A DNA stretch of 64,000 nt, taken from positions 472,506 through 536,505 of the forward strand of contig JBAZJW010000001.1 of assembly GCA_041651055.1 (NCBI GenBank). Reading direction: 5' to 3'. This document shows, piece by piece, positions 17,268 through 60,130 of this stretch. The first letter of the stretch is position 1. Every line of letters starts with the position of its first letter. Origin of the DNA: Minisyncoccota bacterium. Its GTDB lineage: Bacteria; Patescibacteriota; Minisyncoccia; Phycocordibacterales; UBA5272. The position numbers were made by a program, and so were the translations under genes. The notes below the pieces were generated by a model. The model saw only the letters and a list, made by a program, of their open reading frames with translations, was not told the DNA's origin and made no database searches.

Positions 17268-17759
17268 ATGTCTTCTTCAAGAATAAGCATAATTGCAGCA
17301 ATAGGAAAGAATCGAGAATTAGGTAAAAACAATACACTTTTGTGGAAAATACCTGATGATTTGAAGCGTTTCAAGGTTTTGACTTCTGGTCACCCTGTCG
17401 TTATGGGAAGAAAAACTTTTGAATCACTTGGCAGACCCCTCCCTAACAGGGTAAACATTGTTGTAACACGCAATGAAACCTGGAAACCAGAAGGTGTGAC
17501 TATTGTACATTCTCTTTCAGATGGGATTTCTTTGGCTCAACAGTTAGACAGTGTAGAGATTTTTATTCTTGGAGGAGGAGAGATCTACAGCGAAGCTCTT
17601 CCGCTCTCAAACAGACTATATCTCACTGTGATTAATGATGAAAAAGAAGCTGATACTTTTTTTCCTGAGTACAAGAATCTCTTCAATCTTACATCCGAAG
17701 AAAAGCATCATGACGCGCAACTTGGAATAGATTACTCATTTCAGATATTAGAAAAATAA
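17268..17759 (+). CDS. folA: Dihydrofolate reductase
   Basis: IIAAIGKNRELGKNN...LLW and VVMGRKTFESLG motifs. Confidence 0.85.
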   Translation: MSSSRISIIAAIGKNRELGKNNTLLWKIPDDLKRFKVLTSGHPVVMGRKTFESLGRPLPNRVNIVVTRNETWKPEGVTIVHSLSDGISLAQQLDSVEIFILGGGEIYSEALPLSNRLYLTVINDEKEADTFFPEYKNLFNLTSEEKHHDAQLGIDYSFQILEK

Positions 17760-17763
17760 AAAG

Positions 17764-17807
17764 CCCGTTCGAGAAATCGGTGCGAAGCGCACACGTTCTG
17801 CGAACGG
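17764..17807. terminator. Bidirectional terminator between folA and rplK
   Basis: cccgttcg...cgaacgg inverted repeat followed by ttctttaaaaa. Confidence 0.55.
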
Positions 17808-17876
17808 TTCTTTAAAAACAAACCATCCGCCAGAAGCGGATAGTTTGTAAGAATTCTTTAAATTTTTCTTCGTGTG

Positions 17877-18287
17877 TTAGATAACTTTGATACCAGCAGA
17901 ACGCGCAGTACCTTCGATAATCTTCATCCCCTGTTCAATCGTATGAGCAGTAAGGTCCTTTAGCTTGAGCTCTGCAATTTCGCGGATTTTATCTTTTGAA
18001 ATTGTTCCTGCTCCCCCTTTACTGTTTCCTTTTGCAACGTTCGCTGACTTCATCACGAGTGATGTTGCTGTCGGAGTCTTGATAACGAAATCATAGGTAC
18101 GATCTTCGTACACATAGATTTTTACTGACATTCTTCCTTGCTGTCCTTGGGTTGCTGCGTTAAATTTATTAACGAAATCTCCAATCTGAACACCGGCCTG
18201 TCCGAGGGCAGGACCAAGTGGTGGAGCAGGAGTAGCTTTACCCGCTTCAATCTGAACCTTTACGTATTTTGTAATTTTCTTAGCCAT
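17877..18287 (-). CDS. rplK: Ribosomal protein L11
   Basis: [30 protein letters not shown]-terminus. Start taken at the internal Met of the longer ORF. Confidence 0.9.
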
Positions 18288-18360
18288 ATATATAAGTTGT
18301 GGTATTTTAGCACGTTTTTGTATTTTCTTCAACAGCACCCTCGCCTTCCCCTAAAAAGGT

Positions 18361-18460
18361 TTAGATTGTGCCAGGTTCTAGGCGTAAGCAAATTTTGTGA
18401 CCAAAATGTACGAATAGTACATTGCGGGAACAAAATTTGCTTACAACGACGAAGATGGCA
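18361..18460 (-). promoter_or_regulatory. Structured leader element upstream of rplK: ATGTAC-N5-GTACAT palindrome inside a 12-bp enclosing stem
   Basis: aatgtacgaatagtacatt (18395-18413) flanked by gtaagcaaatttt / aaaatttgcttac. Homologous copy at 20372-20430 with a compensating stem. Confidence 0.5.
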
Positions 18461-18474
18461 TGATATAAACCTTT

Positions 18475-19020
18475 TTAGACTTTTTTGATTTGGAGGAAGT
18501 CTAGCTCAACCGGAGTCTCTCTTCCAAACATATTCACCAAGACCTTAAGCTTTCCTCGTGCCTTGTCAACTTCACTGACCTTTCCTTCAAAATCCTTAAA
18601 TGGACCTTCTATGATCGAAACAAGTTCTCCGACTGCGACAGTGATTTCATGTTCAACTTCTCCGTTATTCATACGACCAAAGAGGAAGTCAATCTCTTCT
18701 TGCTTTAGAGGTACGGGGGTTGTCCCTGCTCCTACGAATCCAGTTACACGGGGAGTATTACGAACAACGTACCAACTATTATCATCCACGATCATATCCA
18801 CAAGAATGTATCCTGGGTAAATCTTTTCCTCAACCTCGACACGCTTTGTTCCTTTTACTTTAATTTTCTTTTCAACGGGAACAACCACGGCAAAGATTTT
18901 GTTCTCCATACCGAGAGATTCGATACGTTGTTTCAAATTACGCTGTACAGCGTTCTCATATCCACTGTAGGTGTGAATGGCGTACCAATGACGCTCTCCT
19001 GTAAATTCTTGTTTGGCCAT
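18475..19020 (-). CDS. nusG: Transcription antitermination factor NusG
   Basis: NGN and KOW regions. Sits in the secE-nusG-rplK block. Confidence 0.9.
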   Translation of the reverse strand: MAKQEFTGERHWYAIHTYSGYENAVQRNLKQRIESLGMENKIFAVVVPVEKKIKVKGTKRVEVEEKIYPGYILVDMIVDDNSWYVVRNTPRVTGFVGAGTTPVPLKQEEIDFLFGRMNNGEVEHEITVAVGELVSIIEGPFKDFEGKVSEVDKARGKLKVLVNMFGRETPVELDFLQIKKV

Positions 19021-19082: not shown

Positions 19083-19265
19083 CTAGCGGACGAGAAGCTT
19101 TGTAAGCGCTTCACGGAGACCGAAGTCTGTTCCACCAAGCAACGCAGCCACTATCACAGAGAGCGCAATAACGGCTAACGTGTACGTAATAGTCTGTGTA
19201 GCACTTGGAAATGTTACTTCTTTGAGCTCCGCTTTTGTTTCTTTGAGGTATTGGAAAAGATTCAT
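19083..19265 (-). CDS. secE: Preprotein translocase subunit SecE
   Basis: 60 aa with a single C-terminal TM. Lies upstream of nusG. Confidence 0.7.
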   Translation of the reverse strand: MNLFQYLKETKAELKEVTFPSATQTITYTLAVIALSVIVAALLGGTDFGLREALTKLLVR

Positions 19266-19354: not shown

Positions 19355-19384
19355 AAAAACCAGTCCCCTTATGGACTGGTTTTT
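19355..19384 (-). terminator. Intrinsic terminator downstream of the SIMPL gene
   Basis: aaaaaccagtcc-cctta-tggactggttttt. Confidence 0.6.
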
Positions 19385-19402
19385 GTTGCACGAGTGGTAA
19401 TT

Positions 19403-20230
19403 CTACTTTAGAGAATACGTAACTGTTACACTTGATTTAATAACACTTTCTCCTTGTGGAAGACTAACGCTCATAGGACTTTTTGATGAAACCATATCCA
19501 TTCTCGCGTATGTAGAGTAGTTACCGTTATCGCTAAACTGTGTAACTTCACCGAGATGAGCACCAAGAGCTTTTGCTGTAGCTTCGGCTTTTACCTTTGC
19601 TTGTGCGATAGCCTTTGCTTTTGCTTCCGCCTCTGCAGCATCCATATTGTCCACCGTAAATTCTGGGCCAGAAATTTCTGTAACATTTACACCGCCAAGA
19701 GCGCCGACAACGGCACCGGCTTGGTCAATTTTTCTCACTTTGATTTGTATAACTTCTGCGACCTCGTAGCCAACAACAACGGTACGCCCTTGTGGACAAG
19801 GAATCGTAATACAATAAATCTGAGCTGTCTCATATTTTGGATTAACAGTATATGAAAGTGTTTTTGTATCCTTCTTGTCAACAGAAAGCGCTGAAACAGC
19901 CGCGAGAACTGCTGACATTTTCGTCTCTGCAATTTTCTGAGCTTCAGGAACAGTCTTGGCAGATTCACGAACAGTAAAAGTAACCGTAGCGATATCTGGT
20001 AACGCTGTTACCTCCCCTTCACCTAAAACGGTAATCGTTGGAACTGTCCCGTTCGGATAGTTAACTAATTTCAAACTACTGATTCCTGTAGCAAGAGACA
20101 CGAAAGCGATGCCGATAAGTGCGACACCTCCTGCAATCCATGTATATTTTTTGTAATCGAATGATTCCATATAGTGTGTGTGATTAATGATGATAATTAG
20201 CCTACTTTCACAGGGCAAAGATTGTTTCAA
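19403..20230 (-). CDS. SIMPL/DUF541-domain periplasmic protein
   Basis: N-terminal TM anchor. ITVLGEGEV...PD.A.V.F.V pattern typical of DUF541. Confidence 0.55.
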   Translation of the reverse strand: MKQSLPCESRLIIIINHTHYMESFDYKKYTWIAGGVALIGIAFVSLATGISSLKLVNYPNGTVPTITVLGEGEVTALPDIATVTFTVRESAKTVPEAQKIAETKMSAVLAAVSALSVDKKDTKTLSYTVNPKYETAQIYCITIPCPQGRTVVVGYEVAEVIQIKVRKIDQAGAVVGALGGVNVTEISGPEFTVDNMDAAEAEAKAKAIAQAKVKAEATAKALGAHLGEVTQFSDNGNYSTYARMDMVSSKSPMSVSLPQGESVIKSSVTVTYSLK

Positions 20231-20254
20231 TTACGCGAAGATGGATGTTTTTTC

Positions 20255-20440
20255 GAGGAAGATGTACATATCGTACATTGACCGAGAAAAAGCGTTCATC
20301 GACAAAGTAAGTGGAACAATATATGCCTTGTGACTAAATTCTGAGCCAGAAATTGCTTTAGATGCAAGGCGTCAGAGATTTTTATGACCAAGATGTACGA
20401 ATAGTACTTCGCGGGAATAAAAATCTCTGGCAACGAAGCA
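20255..20440 (-). promoter_or_regulatory. Leader of the SIMPL gene with two copies of the ATGTAC-N5-GTACAT motif
   Basis: atgtacatatcgtacat (20261-20277). atgtacgaatagtac (20393-20407) enclosed by the cagagattttt / aaaaatctctg stem. Confidence 0.5.
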
Positions 20441-20458
20441 GATGAAGTAATTTATGGC

Positions 20459-21250
20459 TTAGAAACGAGCGTTGGAGTACATATAGCCCAGTAAGAGAAG
20501 TATAACAACTAACATCGCAGCCGCAAGCGCTATTATTTTCTCATCTTTTCCTGTCAGCGGCGTCTTGGCAATACGCACGTTATCAATAACGATATGCTTC
20601 TCGATAATCTTTTCCTTTTCCACAACCTTCACAGCTTCCTTTACATCTTTTCCTTCTTCGACTTTTGGCGTTGGCATGATTTCTCCAAAAAAGATATCTT
20701 TATATCTCGAGAATGGCCACACGGACTCAGTGCTTTCGAAAGGACGAAGAGGAAGGTTATGAGGAATTTCAGCCTCTACTTTCTGTAGAGATTTTTCTTT
20801 CGCCGCAATATACTCGACAGGCTCAATGAGTGATTGAGGTTCGCTCACTTTAATCTCCGCCACTTCATACTTCGTTATTTCGGGAACCACTTCAGGAACT
20901 ACCACTGTGGCCTCTGCGGGAATAGGTAACACCTCTTCTGCTGCCGGACCCTCAACTGACTCTATAACCGGCTCCACAGGTAGCTCTTCTTGTGGATTAT
21001 GTTCAAGAAGTTCATGTGTTTCGTCGATCATTTCCGGAAGTACATGCGATGCTTCTGTAGGAACGAGAAGTACTTCTGGTTTTTCAGCGCTGAGAGACTT
21101 CCCTTTTCCACGGAAAAGAACCACTGCGTCAGCAATGGTTCTTTCGTCCCACCCTCCTGCAGTGAGCAGTGTTGTAAGCATCGCCTCATCTAATTGTGGA
21201 TGACGTGCTTCGAGTGTGTTAAGGATGGTTTCTACCTCACGTAAGGTCAT
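20459..21250 (-). CDS. Hypothetical E/P-rich protein with C-terminal TM
   Basis: 263-aa ORF. Its start overlaps the upstream gene's stop (TAATG). Confidence 0.5.
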   Translation of the reverse strand: MTLREVETILNTLEARHPQLDEAMLTTLLTAGGWDERTIADAVVLFRGKGKSLSAEKPEVLLVPTEASHVLPEMIDETHELLEHNPQEELPVEPVIESVEGPAAEEVLPIPAEATVVVPEVVPEITKYEVAEIKVSEPQSLIEPVEYIAAKEKSLQKVEAEIPHNLPLRPFESTESVWPFSRYKDIFFGEIMPTPKVEEGKDVKEAVKVVEKEKIIEKHIVIDNVRIAKTPLTGKDEKIIALAAAMLVVILLLLGYMYSNARF

Positions 21251-34894: not shown

Positions 34895-35326
34895 GTGAGA
34901 AGTATAACATCCTCATTTCCAGCAGGCGCTGTAATTGGGAGCAAAACCAAAAGATATCACTACAATTTTCAAACAAAAAGACTGACTATCGGGGATGTTT
35001 TCCACAAGTTTCGTCTCGTCGCCACTCAACGAACTCACCTTGTCCTCACGGCATGATTTACTAATCAACCGCCGCTCGTGGTTTCACGCACAGGGGTCGC
35101 CTCTCCCGACTTGCTTGAGTACAAGCTTTGCTGGACTGCGATTTCAACAGGCCGAGTACGGTCTAAGAAATCGGGAGCGTACTGCTGTACTCGAGACCTA
35201 CGTCTTCTCGTCGAAGACTGCGGGCAACGATAAATCTTTTGCACTGCAGTTTCAACGGATTGATTACAATCCAAGAAACTGGTAGCCCGCGGTTCGACCC
35301 CCGATAGCCACTACAATTTTCTATAA

Positions 35327-35357
35327 CAAAAATCGCAAGCATGTCGCTTGCGATTTT
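35327..35357. terminator. Perfect hairpin downstream of tRNA-His
   Basis: aaaaatcgcaagc-atgt-cgcttgcgattttt. Confidence 0.6.
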
Positions 35358-35369
35358 TGTTTGAAATTG

Positions 35370-35441
35370 TGTGACTATCGGGGGTCGAACCCGAACTGAG
35401 GGCTCCACAAGCCCGCGTGCTACCATTACACTATAGTCACC
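35370..35441 (-). tRNA. tRNA-His (GTG)
   Basis: Cloverleaf with anticodon loop TTGTGGA, extra 5' G (G-1) and T-arm TCGGG-TTCGACC-CCCGA. No encoded CCA. Confidence 0.85.
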
Positions 35442-36192: not shown

Positions 36193-36422
36193 GAACTTGG
36201 TCACAAAGTCTATTTTTGATCCGCCGGCTGGCGGACAAAAATATAAGACTTCGCGAAGTCGACTGGTAAATTAGTCGACACCTGTAGACGGCCCTATTTA
36301 AGTCCTACGGAAGTGACGTAGGCCATTCTAGGACTTGGTCACAAAGTCTATTTTTGAGTACAAAAATATAAGACTTCGCGACCCCTATTCAAGTCCTCAC
36401 GTATCGCACGCAGGTGCGATAC
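36193..36422. repeat. Two tandem copies (R1, R2) of a composite structured repeat downstream of tRNA-Leu
   Basis: Each copy begins with a partial tRNA-Leu T-arm copy (ggacttg / aacttgg), then gtcacaaagtctatttttg...caaaaatataagacttcgcga. R2 ends in the hairpin gtatcgcac-GCAG-gtgcgatac. R1 carries an extra gtcgac palindrome. Confidence 0.6.
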
Positions 36423-36427
36423 TTCCT

Positions 36428-36483
36428 GGGCACAAAATACAAAAAGCAAAGTCATATGACTTTGCTTTTTGTATTTTGTGCCC
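36428..36483. repeat. 56-bp perfect AT-rich palindrome abutting the tRNA-Leu 3' end
   Basis: gggcacaaaatacaaaaagcaaagtcatatgactttgctttttgtattttgtgccc. The conserved arm cacaaaatacaaaaag is shared with the palindromes at 38050 and 59578. Confidence 0.7.
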
Positions 36484-36562
36484 AGGAGAGGACTTGAACC
36501 TCCATGCCGTTGCCAGCGCTACCACCTCAAGGTAGTGCGTCTACCAGTTTCGCCACCTGGGC
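36479..36562 (-). tRNA. tRNA-Leu (GAG)
   Basis: Long variable arm, anticodon loop TTGAGGT, acceptor GCCCAGG/CCTGGGC. Confidence 0.85.
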
Positions 36563-37981: not shown

Positions 37982-38054
37982 GGGCGATTAGCTCAGTTGG
38001 TAGAGCAGCGCATTTACACTGCGAAGGTCAGAGGTTCGACCCCTCTATTGCCCA
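37982..38054 (+). tRNA. tRNA-Val (TAC)
   Basis: Cloverleaf with anticodon loop TTTACAC, acceptor GGGCGAT/ATTGCCC. Confidence 0.8.
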
Positions 38055-38105
38055 CAAAATACAAAAAGCACCATCTTTCGATGGTGCTTTTTGTATTTTG
38101 TGGGC
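38050..38105. repeat. 56-bp AT-rich palindrome abutting the tRNA-Val 3' end
   Basis: gcccacaaaatacaaaaagcacc-atctttcgat-ggtgctttttgtattttgtgggc. Confidence 0.7.
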
Positions 38106-38267
38106 AATAAGCAAATGACCTTCGTCACTTGCGTGAGGGGTCGAATACGGGTCGGAAAATCTTTTGTTTTGAGTGAAGCGAAAAACTGATTTTGTGACCG
38201 ACCCCCCTATTACTAAAAACCCTATCGTCTCTTTCAAAAATTTCTGCTAGTATACATACGTATCCAT

Positions 38268-45373: not shown

Positions 45374-45804
45374 AGTTATTTAATTAATTGATAACTGTGG
45401 TGAGATACAAAAAGCCCACCACGTGAGTGAAGTCTTGCGACTTCCATATCCGTTTCCAGATATGACCGGTAAAGGTAAATCCCACATGATGGGTTCTTTA
45501 TCCTTTACCGGGTTTTCGACCATACCTTACAAGAAATTCTCACAAGGGTTAGGTCTCTTTATTGATTTGTTGTTTTATTTTATCACTTTTAGTGACTTTT
45601 GCATCCTAGCTTAGCTTCAGGTGTTTGTGTAGTCTTGACTTCAACCAAGTGTGAGGCATACACTGGGAGCAGTTCAGAAGCAAAACGAAATACCTACCTA
45701 AACAGAAGAGGACGGAATACCCATTCCCAACCCTCGCTTGTTTGGGTGGGTATTTTTGTTTCTGACATACCTAAACGGATTTACTAATTAACAATATATT
45801 TGTT

Positions 45805-59463: not shown

Positions 59464-59577
59464 TTTTTTCGTCGCCACTCAAAAAGTTCGCAGCCCGCCG
59501 CTCGTGGTTTTTCTTGCTAGAAAAACATCACTGCGCCCATTCGATTCCTGACGAAAAGCGCGCAGGCGCTTTTCTCC

Positions 59578-59635
59578 GAGAGCACAAAATACAAAAACCA
59601 CTTCTTTATGAAGTGGTTTTTGTATTTTGTGCTCT
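59578..59635. repeat. 58-bp AT-rich palindrome abutting the tRNA-Arg(GCG) 3' end
   Basis: gagagcacaaaatacaaaaaccacttc-tttatg-aagtggtttttgtattttgtgctctc. Confidence 0.7.
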
Positions 59636-59700
59636 CGGCAGGAATCGAACCTGCATCGCAAGTACCGCAAACTTGAATTCTATCCATTGAACTACGAGAG
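59629..59700 (-). tRNA. tRNA-Arg (GCG)
   Basis: Acceptor GCTCTCG/CGAGAGC. Anticodon stem CAAGT/ACTTG with loop TTGCGGT. T-arm GCAGG-TTCGATT-CCTGC. Confidence 0.7.
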
Positions 59701-59863
59701 CATGTGTACCACGAAAGTTTTCTCACGTGATACCGTACACCGCACGAGAAGTTTCTCTAGAAACTGAATGCAGTACGAGGAGCTTAGAAATTTTTGGAAG
59801 TAAGGCGTACATGCTAGTACGACGACTGAGAAAAATTCCGTAGCGACAACGTAATGCGTCAGT

Positions 59864-60130
59864 TTATTTAGAAACTTTCGCTACAGCCTTTGCGAGGCGT
59901 GACTTCTTGCGGTTCGCAGTCCCCTTCTTGATAGTACCCTTCTTTGCAGCTTTATCGAGAGCTTTGAAAGCGAGAGAAAGATCTGAAGTGAGTGCTTTCG
60001 CATCCTTACTTACAACATCTTTGCGGACAGTTTTCACAGCTTCCTTCATTGTACGACGAACACGGTCGTTAACGACTCGCTTTCTATCGCTTACACGTAA
60101 TGCTTTCTTTGCGTTTTTTGTAATTGCCAT
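59864..60130 (-). CDS. rpsT: Ribosomal protein S20
   Basis: Basic 88-aa protein. MAITKNAKKALR...RNR pattern. Confidence 0.8.
   Translation of the reverse strand: MAITKNAKKALRVSDRKRVVNDRVRRTMKEAVKTVRKDVVSKDAKALTSDLSLAFKALDKAAKKGTIKKGTANRKKSRLAKAVAKVSK

Follow-up and report, generated by a model that had tools for sequence, protein, structure and literature searches.

A 64,000-nt stretch of the genome of a Minisyncoccota bacterium (GenBank assembly GCA_041651055.1, contig JBAZJW010000001.1, positions 472,506 to 536,505 of the forward strand; the whole stretch is called the window below) carries a previously unannotated imperfect hairpin repeat of about 126-136 nt. Three palindromes of the form ATGTAC-N5-GTACAT, which a preliminary description had placed in the leaders of rplK and of a SIMPL-domain gene, are the apical helices of this repeat, and this identification is well supported. 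It is likewise well supported that the repeat forms a multi-copy family carried by a minority of Patescibacteria, the candidate phyla radiation (CPR), that are scattered through the group; among them are Saccharibacteria, Paceibacteria/Nomurabacteria and others. The family is new, and its hairpin is backed by covariation. Its copies are placed at gene boundaries with fixed polarity, have no gene specificity, fold asymmetrically and are patchily spread. The element is not a regulon control of rplK or the SIMPL gene.

The threefold occurrence of the palindrome in the window was confirmed, with two exact copies and one bearing a single mismatch (Table 1), compared with 0.09 expected; none of 100 shuffles reached three. 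The conserved flanks were also recovered (TGACCA...CGGGAA twice versus 0.06 expected), and the stems enclosing the first two copies do differ in sequence while remaining complementary. Several details had to be revised. The coordinates given for copy 1 (18395-18413) were about 10 nt too low. The enclosing stem, described as 12 bp, has 15 bp and is itself set within further helices. The supposedly bare third palindrome belongs to a diverged but complete element, which stands in tandem with copy 2, and there is also a fourth copy. A covariance model was built from 33 sequences (R1) and rebuilt from 64 (R2). The window was scanned with both models with filters off, showing exactly four copies, all on the + strand. 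At E<=1e-7 the model collected 64 copies, four in the window and 60 in 56 Patescibacteria loci.

Every sequence of the family folds as one long hairpin, with helices totalling about 45-50 bp. Read on the + strand, the hairpin is closed by a locus-specific outer stem, P1, with 12-22 Watson-Crick pairs beyond the model and a 3-bp inner part, and P1 encloses the 3-bp P2. Internal loop I consists of GAGGC opposite CAAC-R-AA with one conserved G-C pair within. P4 is a covarying helix of 15 bp, replaced in Saccharibacteria by a purine-rich loop. Above P4 lie a U-A pair, a tandem G.A/A.G, the 2-bp P5 (CC/GG) and an AA/GM mismatch with AA opposite GC, and the apex is formed by the 7-bp P6, which is the noted palindrome, with its 5-nt loop. 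The internal loops UGACCAA/GCGGGAA and GAGGC/CAACRAA are invariant and purine-rich. In copy 3 of the window, P5 is flipped from CC/GG to GG/CC and the tandem G.A and AA positions are retained.

The pairing was evaluated on the 64 copies. Among the 31 modelled pairs, 27 were changed on both sides, and 86.8% of cells were paired. The covariation score was 0.513 versus 0.159 in shuffles (0/500 reached it), and slid partners gave at most 0.097. Compensated cells numbered 404, compared with 130.5 in shuffles and 39-90 in slid controls. On none of five covariation measures did any of the 500 shuffles reach the observed value. Covariation thus goes beyond the controls in many independent sequences, as is expected of a conserved structured nucleic-acid motif. 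The palindrome itself takes part in these changes: the tandem copies of locus L015 read GTAC..GTAC and GTAG..CTAC, the nusG copies of L063 and L065 also GTAG..CTAC, and L021 reads TTAC..GTAA. These compensatory changes indicate that pairing, not half-site sequence, is conserved.

Other explanations of the conserved core were rejected. One frame, CDQxVxxVxCGNK, stays open in the core, and all three of its codon positions are invariant, with variation confined to paired columns. The -10-like hexamer of a promoter within the core (TTGTGA-17-TACATT) falls in covarying columns. A K-turn, a SECIS-like quartet, a loop E, SRP domain IV and attC R boxes were checked by eye in the alignment and failed by lack of a 3-nt bulge, wrong spacing or strand, or missing boxes. 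TIGR arrays, which are short tandem guide arrays, do not fit. One subfamily (L003, L004, L009, L011, L015, L025, L028, L045 and L047) has conserved ends, GAGGAUUUUUG...CAAAAAGACC, and an open 25-codon frame, LFEFKARRFVCDQSVHLVLCGNKQN, preceded by the GAGGA of the conserved end; its codon positions are equally conserved, and this frame was therefore judged non-coding.

The spread of the family was measured with a strict core pattern, TGACCAA-N3-GTAC-N5-GTAC-N3-GCGGGAA, which specifies 22 bases and has a chance expectation of about 0.07 matches in 596 Gb on both strands. It was found at 33 loci in the species-representative genome set and at 23 further loci in metagenomes. Only about 25 of 185,579 species representatives carry it, yet these span several CPR classes. 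Labels of the metagenome-assembled genomes (MAGs) with the strict core include Saccharibacteria, Paceibacterota, Nomurabacteria, Vogelbacteria, Zambryskibacteria and Minisyncoccia. All named records are labelled as Patescibacteria lineages or plainly as 'bacterium', with the sole exception of L005 (CAYHWW010000148.1), from a MAG labelled Oligoflexia, which has one full copy (59.8 bits, 63% G+C) between murD and ftsW; either the contig is mis-binned or the element also occurs outside CPR. Up to five strict copies were found per MAG, and several copies lie at contig ends. No copy was found in the viral contigs searched with the core pattern. In Rfam 15, no family reached its gathering score at the element positions of the window or in 18 loci, and at E<=10 these positions gave only chance-level miRNA-like hairpin matches. 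A tRNA/tmRNA scan of the window yielded nothing related to the element, and the full-text literature searched contained no description of it.

All copies are intergenic, and in the window the outer stems of copies 1, 2 and 4 reach stop or last codons. A convergent gene ends just beyond about 45 of 57 copies, its stop codon 3-25 nt past the 3' end of the model and thereby inside P1 or at its foot. The 5' side always has a gap, typically of 70-120 nt, and the 3' side is tight to a gene end, either stop or start. Orientation is biased about 80:20. Seven copies have the opposite polarity and abut the start codons of co-directional genes (dnaK, obg, rpmA, bipA, murJ, an epimerase gene and a yqeY-like gene), with the start codon or Shine-Dalgarno sequence in P1. 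L021 has two oppositely oriented copies within 2.6 kb, which argues against a pure replication rule for orientation. The preliminary description had named random scatter, copies within coding regions, no leader preference and no covariation as counter-evidence to its reading. The copies proved non-random, non-coding and covarying, and the leader preference was indeed missing.

In other genomes, more than 25 unrelated genes are abutted. These include rpsG (eight loci, before fusA), rplB, rplK, rpsR, ssb, gyrB, dnaB, secG, pilC, pgk, rpiB, the gene for HU, murD (before ftsW), alaS, the ribonucleotide reductase small subunit gene, dnaJ, and genes for an FKBP and an RRM protein, among others. The abutting genes share no function, and hence there is no regulon, contrary to what had been proposed from the two genes in the window. 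At least 12 of 59 loci have a canonical intrinsic terminator within about 40 nt after the element in the gene direction, and none of 59 has one in the other direction. Because a terminator follows it, the element lies inside the transcription unit of the upstream gene and is not itself a terminator. No regular T run was seen after the outer stem, and terminator function was rejected. Separately, ruvB is preceded at a distance of 250-275 nt by a sense-oriented copy at three loci (L001 1000-1330, L012 4290-4620 and L022 6555-6815). In L001 and L012 an extra hairpin, GUGAAUCUGNUGAUUCAG, is inserted in its 3' half, and the 250-nt spacer before ruvB had no Rfam match.

In the window the same placement was observed, with every flanking gene on the minus strand. 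Copy 1 has the nusG stop codon (18475-18477) within its outer stem. The outer stem of copy 2 covers the stop codon (20459-20461) and last codon of an open reading frame (ORF) of 263 aa. Copy 4 lies between the rpsT stop codon (59864-59866) and a minus-strand tRNA-Arg gene (59629-59701), and its outer stem pairs with the last five rpsT codons. The copies thus start at stop codons of upstream genes rather than in the rplK and SIMPL leaders. A promoter-like site of rplK, TTGAAG-17-TAAAAT (18332-18304), lies between copy 1 and the start codon, and that of the SIMPL gene (20218-20190) comes directly after copy 3 when read in the gene direction. These positions place the elements upstream of the promoters, not in the leaders. 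A covarying stem had also been taken as the sign of a cis-regulatory RNA; a structured nucleic-acid element, as opposed to a plain protein operator, stands, now in 64 copies, and the leader role for rplK and SIMPL falls away.

That the palindrome is the operator of a dimeric repressor, or part of a leader riboregulator co-regulating rplK and SIMPL, is very improbable. The dyad is significantly over-represented in the window, two copies do map upstream of these genes, and the nusG-rplK gap carries the element not only in the window but also in L053, L063 and L065. Against this, the dyad bases vary by compensatory substitution within and between genomes, and the sites are anchored to preceding stop codons, not to promoters: they precede the promoter-like -35 boxes by 50-150 nt, and measured from the dyad centres the distance is about 80 nt for rplK and about 50 and 180 nt for SIMPL. 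More than 25 unrelated genes precede the element elsewhere, and no ribosomal leader of Rfam matched. The best-folding strand is antisense to both rplK and SIMPL. Moreover, the element is absent upstream of SIMPL in seven of seven related genomes, and upstream of rplK in four of these.

The two strands of the element do not fold equally well. Minimum free energies (MFEs) in the window were -63.5 kcal/mol on the + strand versus -55.8 on the reverse complement for copy 1 (z = -9.0), -63.2 versus -42.2 for copy 2, and -60.8 versus -35.4 for copy 3, for which DNA parameters gave -26.8 versus -17.7. The whole element was about 10 kcal/mol stabler on the + strand in 55 of 59 non-redundant copies, and DNA energy parameters ranked the strands in the same way. 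When P1 was folded alone with symmetric linkers, the + strand was stabler by 2.9 kcal/mol (43 vs 16, p~1e-4). Isolated P1 mismatches in Watson-Crick-only folds were more often G.U than A.C (23 vs 9) and more often R.R than Y.Y (20 vs 11), and the model alignment of the core gave the same picture (86 vs 31 and 157 vs 60, respectively). Two inner P1 pairs cycle through U-A, U.G and C-G, with 28 and 17 U.G and no A.C. Plain MFE structures were uninformative on this point (110 G.U vs 110 A.C). The tandem G.A stands on the + strand as 5'-UGAC/GGAA, or as 5'-CGAG/CGAG where P5 is flipped, and the gene strand has a U.C/C.U tandem there. Tandem G.A is a classic stabilising motif. In the orthologous nusG copies of L063 and L065 the antisense strand reached -53 and -45 kcal/mol versus -34 and -25 on the gene strand, and the outer stems failed to form in the sense RNA. 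These results make it highly probable that the + strand, antisense to the adjoining genes, is the strand selected for folding. This is unusual, as the strand in question is antisense to the host transcription units, and in most loci the mRNA would carry the reverse complement, UUCCCGC...UUGGUCA.

A direct reading of this asymmetry is that small structured RNAs are made from the + strand, antisense to and convergent with the neighbouring gene. Such RNAs would start in the 5'-side gap, for example from the divergent half of a bidirectional promoter of the downstream gene, with the hairpin as a protein-binding or stabilising scaffold, and would run antisense into the 3' end of the neighbour or, at about 15% of loci, form a co-directional 5' untranslated region (UTR) with the start codon in P1. 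The wobble-mediated covariation, purine-rich loops, tandem G.A and energy asymmetry all fall on the + strand, and the constant 5' gap and tight 3' side would suit a transcript. Two -10-like hexamers are found on the + strand of the window, TGgTATTTT at 18300-18308 and GATAAT at 20192-20197, the latter 11 nt before copy 3. They overlap the promoter-like -10 boxes of rplK and SIMPL, respectively; judged from sequence, these overlapping boxes face the elements and are possible bidirectional promoters, without statistical support across loci. In consensus scans, + strand promoter-like sites were not enriched upstream of P1 (15 of 56 loci versus 16.5 in shuffles), and the minus strand, on which the promoter of the downstream gene lies, had them in 24 of 56. 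No terminator follows the element in the + direction (0/59), and at 12 or more loci a bidirectional terminator stands between the would-be promoter region and the element. Copies in L005 and L013 are squeezed between two genes with 13-18 nt to spare. Tens of copies of the same small RNA in a genome of about 0.6 Mb would also be unusual. Taken with these points, the + strand RNA is unlikely. The structure favours the + strand, yet an independent + strand RNA is without support, and this conflict is the main unexplained result.

The opposite strand offers another explanation, in which the sense mRNA carries the element in cis, within its 3' UTR or intercistronically, and the reverse-complement hairpin with its pyrimidine-rich loops would act after the stop codon. 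It might be processed (e.g. by RNase III), stabilise the 3' end, insulate translation or transcription, or give rise to RNAs derived from the 3' UTR. We consider this improbable. The element is transcribed in that direction in most loci, lies within the conserved operons nusG-rplK, rpsG-fusA, murD-ftsW, ssb-rpsR and rplB-rpsS, and is placed between stop codons and canonical terminators. A post-stop position is also that of REP, ERIC and Correia elements. Two invariant A/C oppositions of the + strand become G.U on the sense strand. However, the sense hairpin is systematically weaker, and outer stems collapse not only in L063 and L065 but also in copy 3 of the window (-35 vs -61 kcal/mol). Wobble pairs are scarcer than A.C mismatches on this strand, whereas selection on such an RNA would give the reverse, and we know of no structural precedent for conserved loops made up wholly of pyrimidine-pyrimidine oppositions. 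Finally, about 15-20% of the copies are reversed and equally well conserved, and close relatives have no element at the same sites.

NusG homologues place the window among CPR bacteria resembling Nomurabacteria/Paceibacteria, and related genomes were compared at the nusG locus. Four of them (NusG 77-90% identical) share the SIMPL-secE-nusG-rplK order of the window, and no element copy was found in 20 kb of each. Their nusG-rplK gaps are 29-178 nt and element-free, and the rplK promoter is conserved. The closest relatives (NusG 92-94%) have one copy after nusG and none before SIMPL. This nusG copy has a core of a different type, GGAAG...GACUGA, a P6 of GUAG/CUAC and a P4 rewritten by compensatory changes. 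Copies within one MAG (L011 and L028; the five of CAYVZI01) are more alike than copies at the same site in different MAGs. It is unusual that near relatives lack the element and distant classes share it. The family is patchy and dynamic, probably with horizontal exchange, and individual copies are nevertheless structurally maintained for considerable time. Two weaker features were noted in these relatives. A marginal match of 29.6 bits in the divergent gap before a TPR-protein gene (L063 1423-1517 and L064 1435-1529, both +) may be a decaying copy. The nusG-rplK gap of the element-free relative L057 (10547-10680) contains an imperfect hairpin that is weak (-30 kcal/mol, z -1.9) and unrelated to the element; it could be a remnant or a different repeat.

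We tentatively favour the view that the element is a new extragenic repeat of the REP/REPIN/ERIC kind, with a hairpin that is specific to one strand. It is multi-copy and extragenic, folds as a compensated hairpin and is patchy among related genomes, as extragenic palindromic repeats are. A putative protein would read the conserved purine loops of the single-stranded hairpin, and the folded form could be single-stranded DNA (ssDNA), as in the REP-RAYT or attC-IntI pairs, RNA being less likely. The element would be gained, lost and remodelled on short time scales, would spread or be homogenised within genomes, and would lodge at gene boundaries, for the most part directly behind stop codons. 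It would then be passively co-transcribed into 3' UTRs or intercistronic mRNA as the weaker-folding reverse complement. The orientation bias may result from the orientation that the host tolerates or from a strand-specific insertion mechanism, not from regulation of the downstream gene. This could reconcile the conflict described above: the + fold may serve the element's own biochemistry, and the surviving copies would mostly put the weaker hairpin into mRNA.

Several observations weigh against this view. No mobilising or binding protein was found, and no RAYT/IS200-like motif was present in about 700 kb, which at 20 kb or less per genome is too little for a single-copy gene. Most subfamilies have no conserved termini, and neither a target-site duplication nor the REP-style GTAG/CGTC tag was seen. 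The folded strand is the transcription template and, judged by GC skew, for co-oriented genes also the leading-strand template. The leading-strand template is the strand that is least often single-stranded, the opposite of the IS200/IS605 prediction. The seven copies on start codons of essential genes are also difficult, as a purely tolerated insertion should hardly survive there. Moreover, at rpsG, gyrB, nusG, ssb and other sites, orthologous copies have preserved their structure through many compensatory changes. This points to selection acting where the copies stand, and a host function would explain it no less well than a selfish element would.

A bolder reading makes the element the cis-acting part of a strand-specific CPR system, so far undescribed, that has a dedicated protein partner and comprises either antisense or divergent structured RNAs placed at the 3' ends of housekeeping genes or a new kind of template-strand ssDNA hairpin element. 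We regard this as possible but doubtful. The partner would read the tandem G.A and the purine loops, and the element would have spread between distant CPR lineages and been kept in place by compensatory evolution.

Table 1. Copies of the hairpin element and adjoining genes in the window.
Feature	Position	Strand	Details
Copy 1	18351-18478	+	Model core 18367-18461; R1 98.4 bits, R2 97.4 bits
Copy 1, P4	18384-18398 / 18430-18444	+	
Copy 1, loop II	18398-18404, 18424-18430	+	TGACCAA, GCGGGAA
Copy 1, apical helix and loop	18405-18423	+	Dyad 18406-18422, exact
Copy 2	20339-20464	+	Model core 20354-20448; R1 96.4 bits, R2 96.7 bits
Copy 2, dyad	20393-20409	+	One mismatch
Copy 3	20208-20333	+	Model core 20223-20317; dyad 20262-20278, exact; R1 67.5 bits, R2 75 bits; E~1e-17
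Copy 4	59745-59880	+	Model core 59765-59861; R1 46.9 bits, R2 61.4 bits
rplK (L11)	17877-18287	-	ORF and Pfam
nusG	18475-19020	-	ORF; Pfam NusG 1.8e-27; stop abutted by copy 1
secE	19083-19265	-	ORF
SIMPL/DUF541 gene	19403-20170	-	ORF and Pfam
263-aa ORF	20459-21250	-	No Pfam family; stop abutted by copy 2
rpsT (S20)	59864-60130	-	ORF and Pfam; stop abutted by copy 4

The surroundings of the copies were also inspected (Table 1). A bidirectional terminator follows the SIMPL gene at about 19355-19386. The rplK gene is followed not by rplA but by a terminator-like hairpin (about 17830-17850) and then by an opposite-strand DHFR-like gene (163 aa, homologous to the PF00186 gene of related loci; window 17268-18287), and the arrangement is the same in all related loci examined. 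The window therefore lacks both the common rplKA operon and the L1-binding leader that goes with it. Weak model matches beside tRNA genes (35310-35374, 36408-36504, 38044-38111 and 59564-59653; 15-20 bits, E 0.005-0.2) were rejected as members, since they resemble ordinary terminator hairpins, e.g. aaaaaccacttctttatgaagtggttttt at about 59590-59625. A full-length LOOT RNA (RF03000) is encoded at 45429-45555 on the minus strand (92 bits, E 2.6e-16); LOOT is an orphan structured RNA whose presence fits a Patescibacteria (CPR) host. GC skew of the + strand is negative over most of 1-64000, with a positive patch at 44-52 kb, and the minus strand carries 44 of 62 long ORFs. The minus strand of the window is probably the leading strand, which would put the folded strand of all four elements on the leading-strand template.

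Patescibacteria make up a large share of bacterial diversity and have tiny genomes (about 0.5-1 Mb). To our knowledge, almost nothing is known of their non-coding repertoire. In the window, the element of about 130 nt occupies about 1% of the sequence. Should a partner protein exist, the element would open a new way to approach genome dynamics or gene expression in these hard-to-study organisms. Its hairpins may also break up assemblies, or be taken in annotation for leaders, terminators or operators, as happened in the preliminary description.

The element does not belong to the MITEs or to any Rfam family, and probably not to REP or attC, and shares features with several known systems. Like an intrinsic terminator, it is a post-stop hairpin, and some outer stems have A-run/T-run arms (copy 1, CTAAAAAGG...CCTTTTTAG); it differs in having no consistent U tract in either direction, in its conserved internal loops, and in its presence inside operons that need read-through. 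In many bacteria an L1-binding leader sits between nusG and rplK, as copy 1 does. Unlike such ribosomal-protein leaders, the CPR element follows dozens of non-ribosomal genes, and its folded strand is antisense to rplK.

The attC sites of integrons are hairpins of 57-141 nt that directly follow an ORF, often in contact with its stop codon, and whose bottom strand is folded and recognised through conserved structure and specific unpaired bases. The CPR element shares the post-ORF position, the folding of the antisense strand and an overlapping length range. In attC the conserved boxes RYYYAAC/GTTRRRY are at the hairpin base and the top is variable, whereas in the CPR element the base is variable and the interior conserved, and no R-box consensus stands at the base. 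It adjoins essential housekeeping genes of conserved operons instead of cassettes, and no integrase was seen. It also differs from miniature inverted-repeat transposable elements (MITEs), as its termini are mostly variable; in the subfamily whose ends are conserved (GAGGATTTTTG...CAAAAAGACC), the sequences on either side of the element are inverted complements instead of direct repeats at seven loci.

ERIC/IRU elements are 127-bp imperfect palindromes, transcribed and intergenic, which lie near stop codons, are conserved beyond the species and are patchy at orthologous sites. Size, imperfect palindrome, near-stop position and patchiness are common to both. The CPR element is, however, unrelated in sequence and host phylum, has highly conserved non-canonical loops, and is strongly orientation-biased, with its better-folding strand antisense to genes. 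REPs and REPINs are multi-copy extragenic imperfect palindromes, REPINs forming hairpins of about 100 nt with compensated stems; they lie mostly just after genes and are co-transcribed, one strand is recognised as ssDNA, and whole genomes either have or lack them (see also PMC3116915, PMC3733652). A REP is a palindrome of 20-40 nt tagged at its foot by GTAG or CGTC, and REPs also form inverted doublets. The same multi-copy, extragenic, post-gene, compensated-hairpin and present-or-absent features were found for the CPR element. In contrast to the two terminal REP units of a REPIN, what the CPR element conserves are internal loops around its middle and apex; its arms differ in a conserved, asymmetric way and its feet are locus-specific. 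Moreover, its core is identical across classes, whereas REPs are species-specific.

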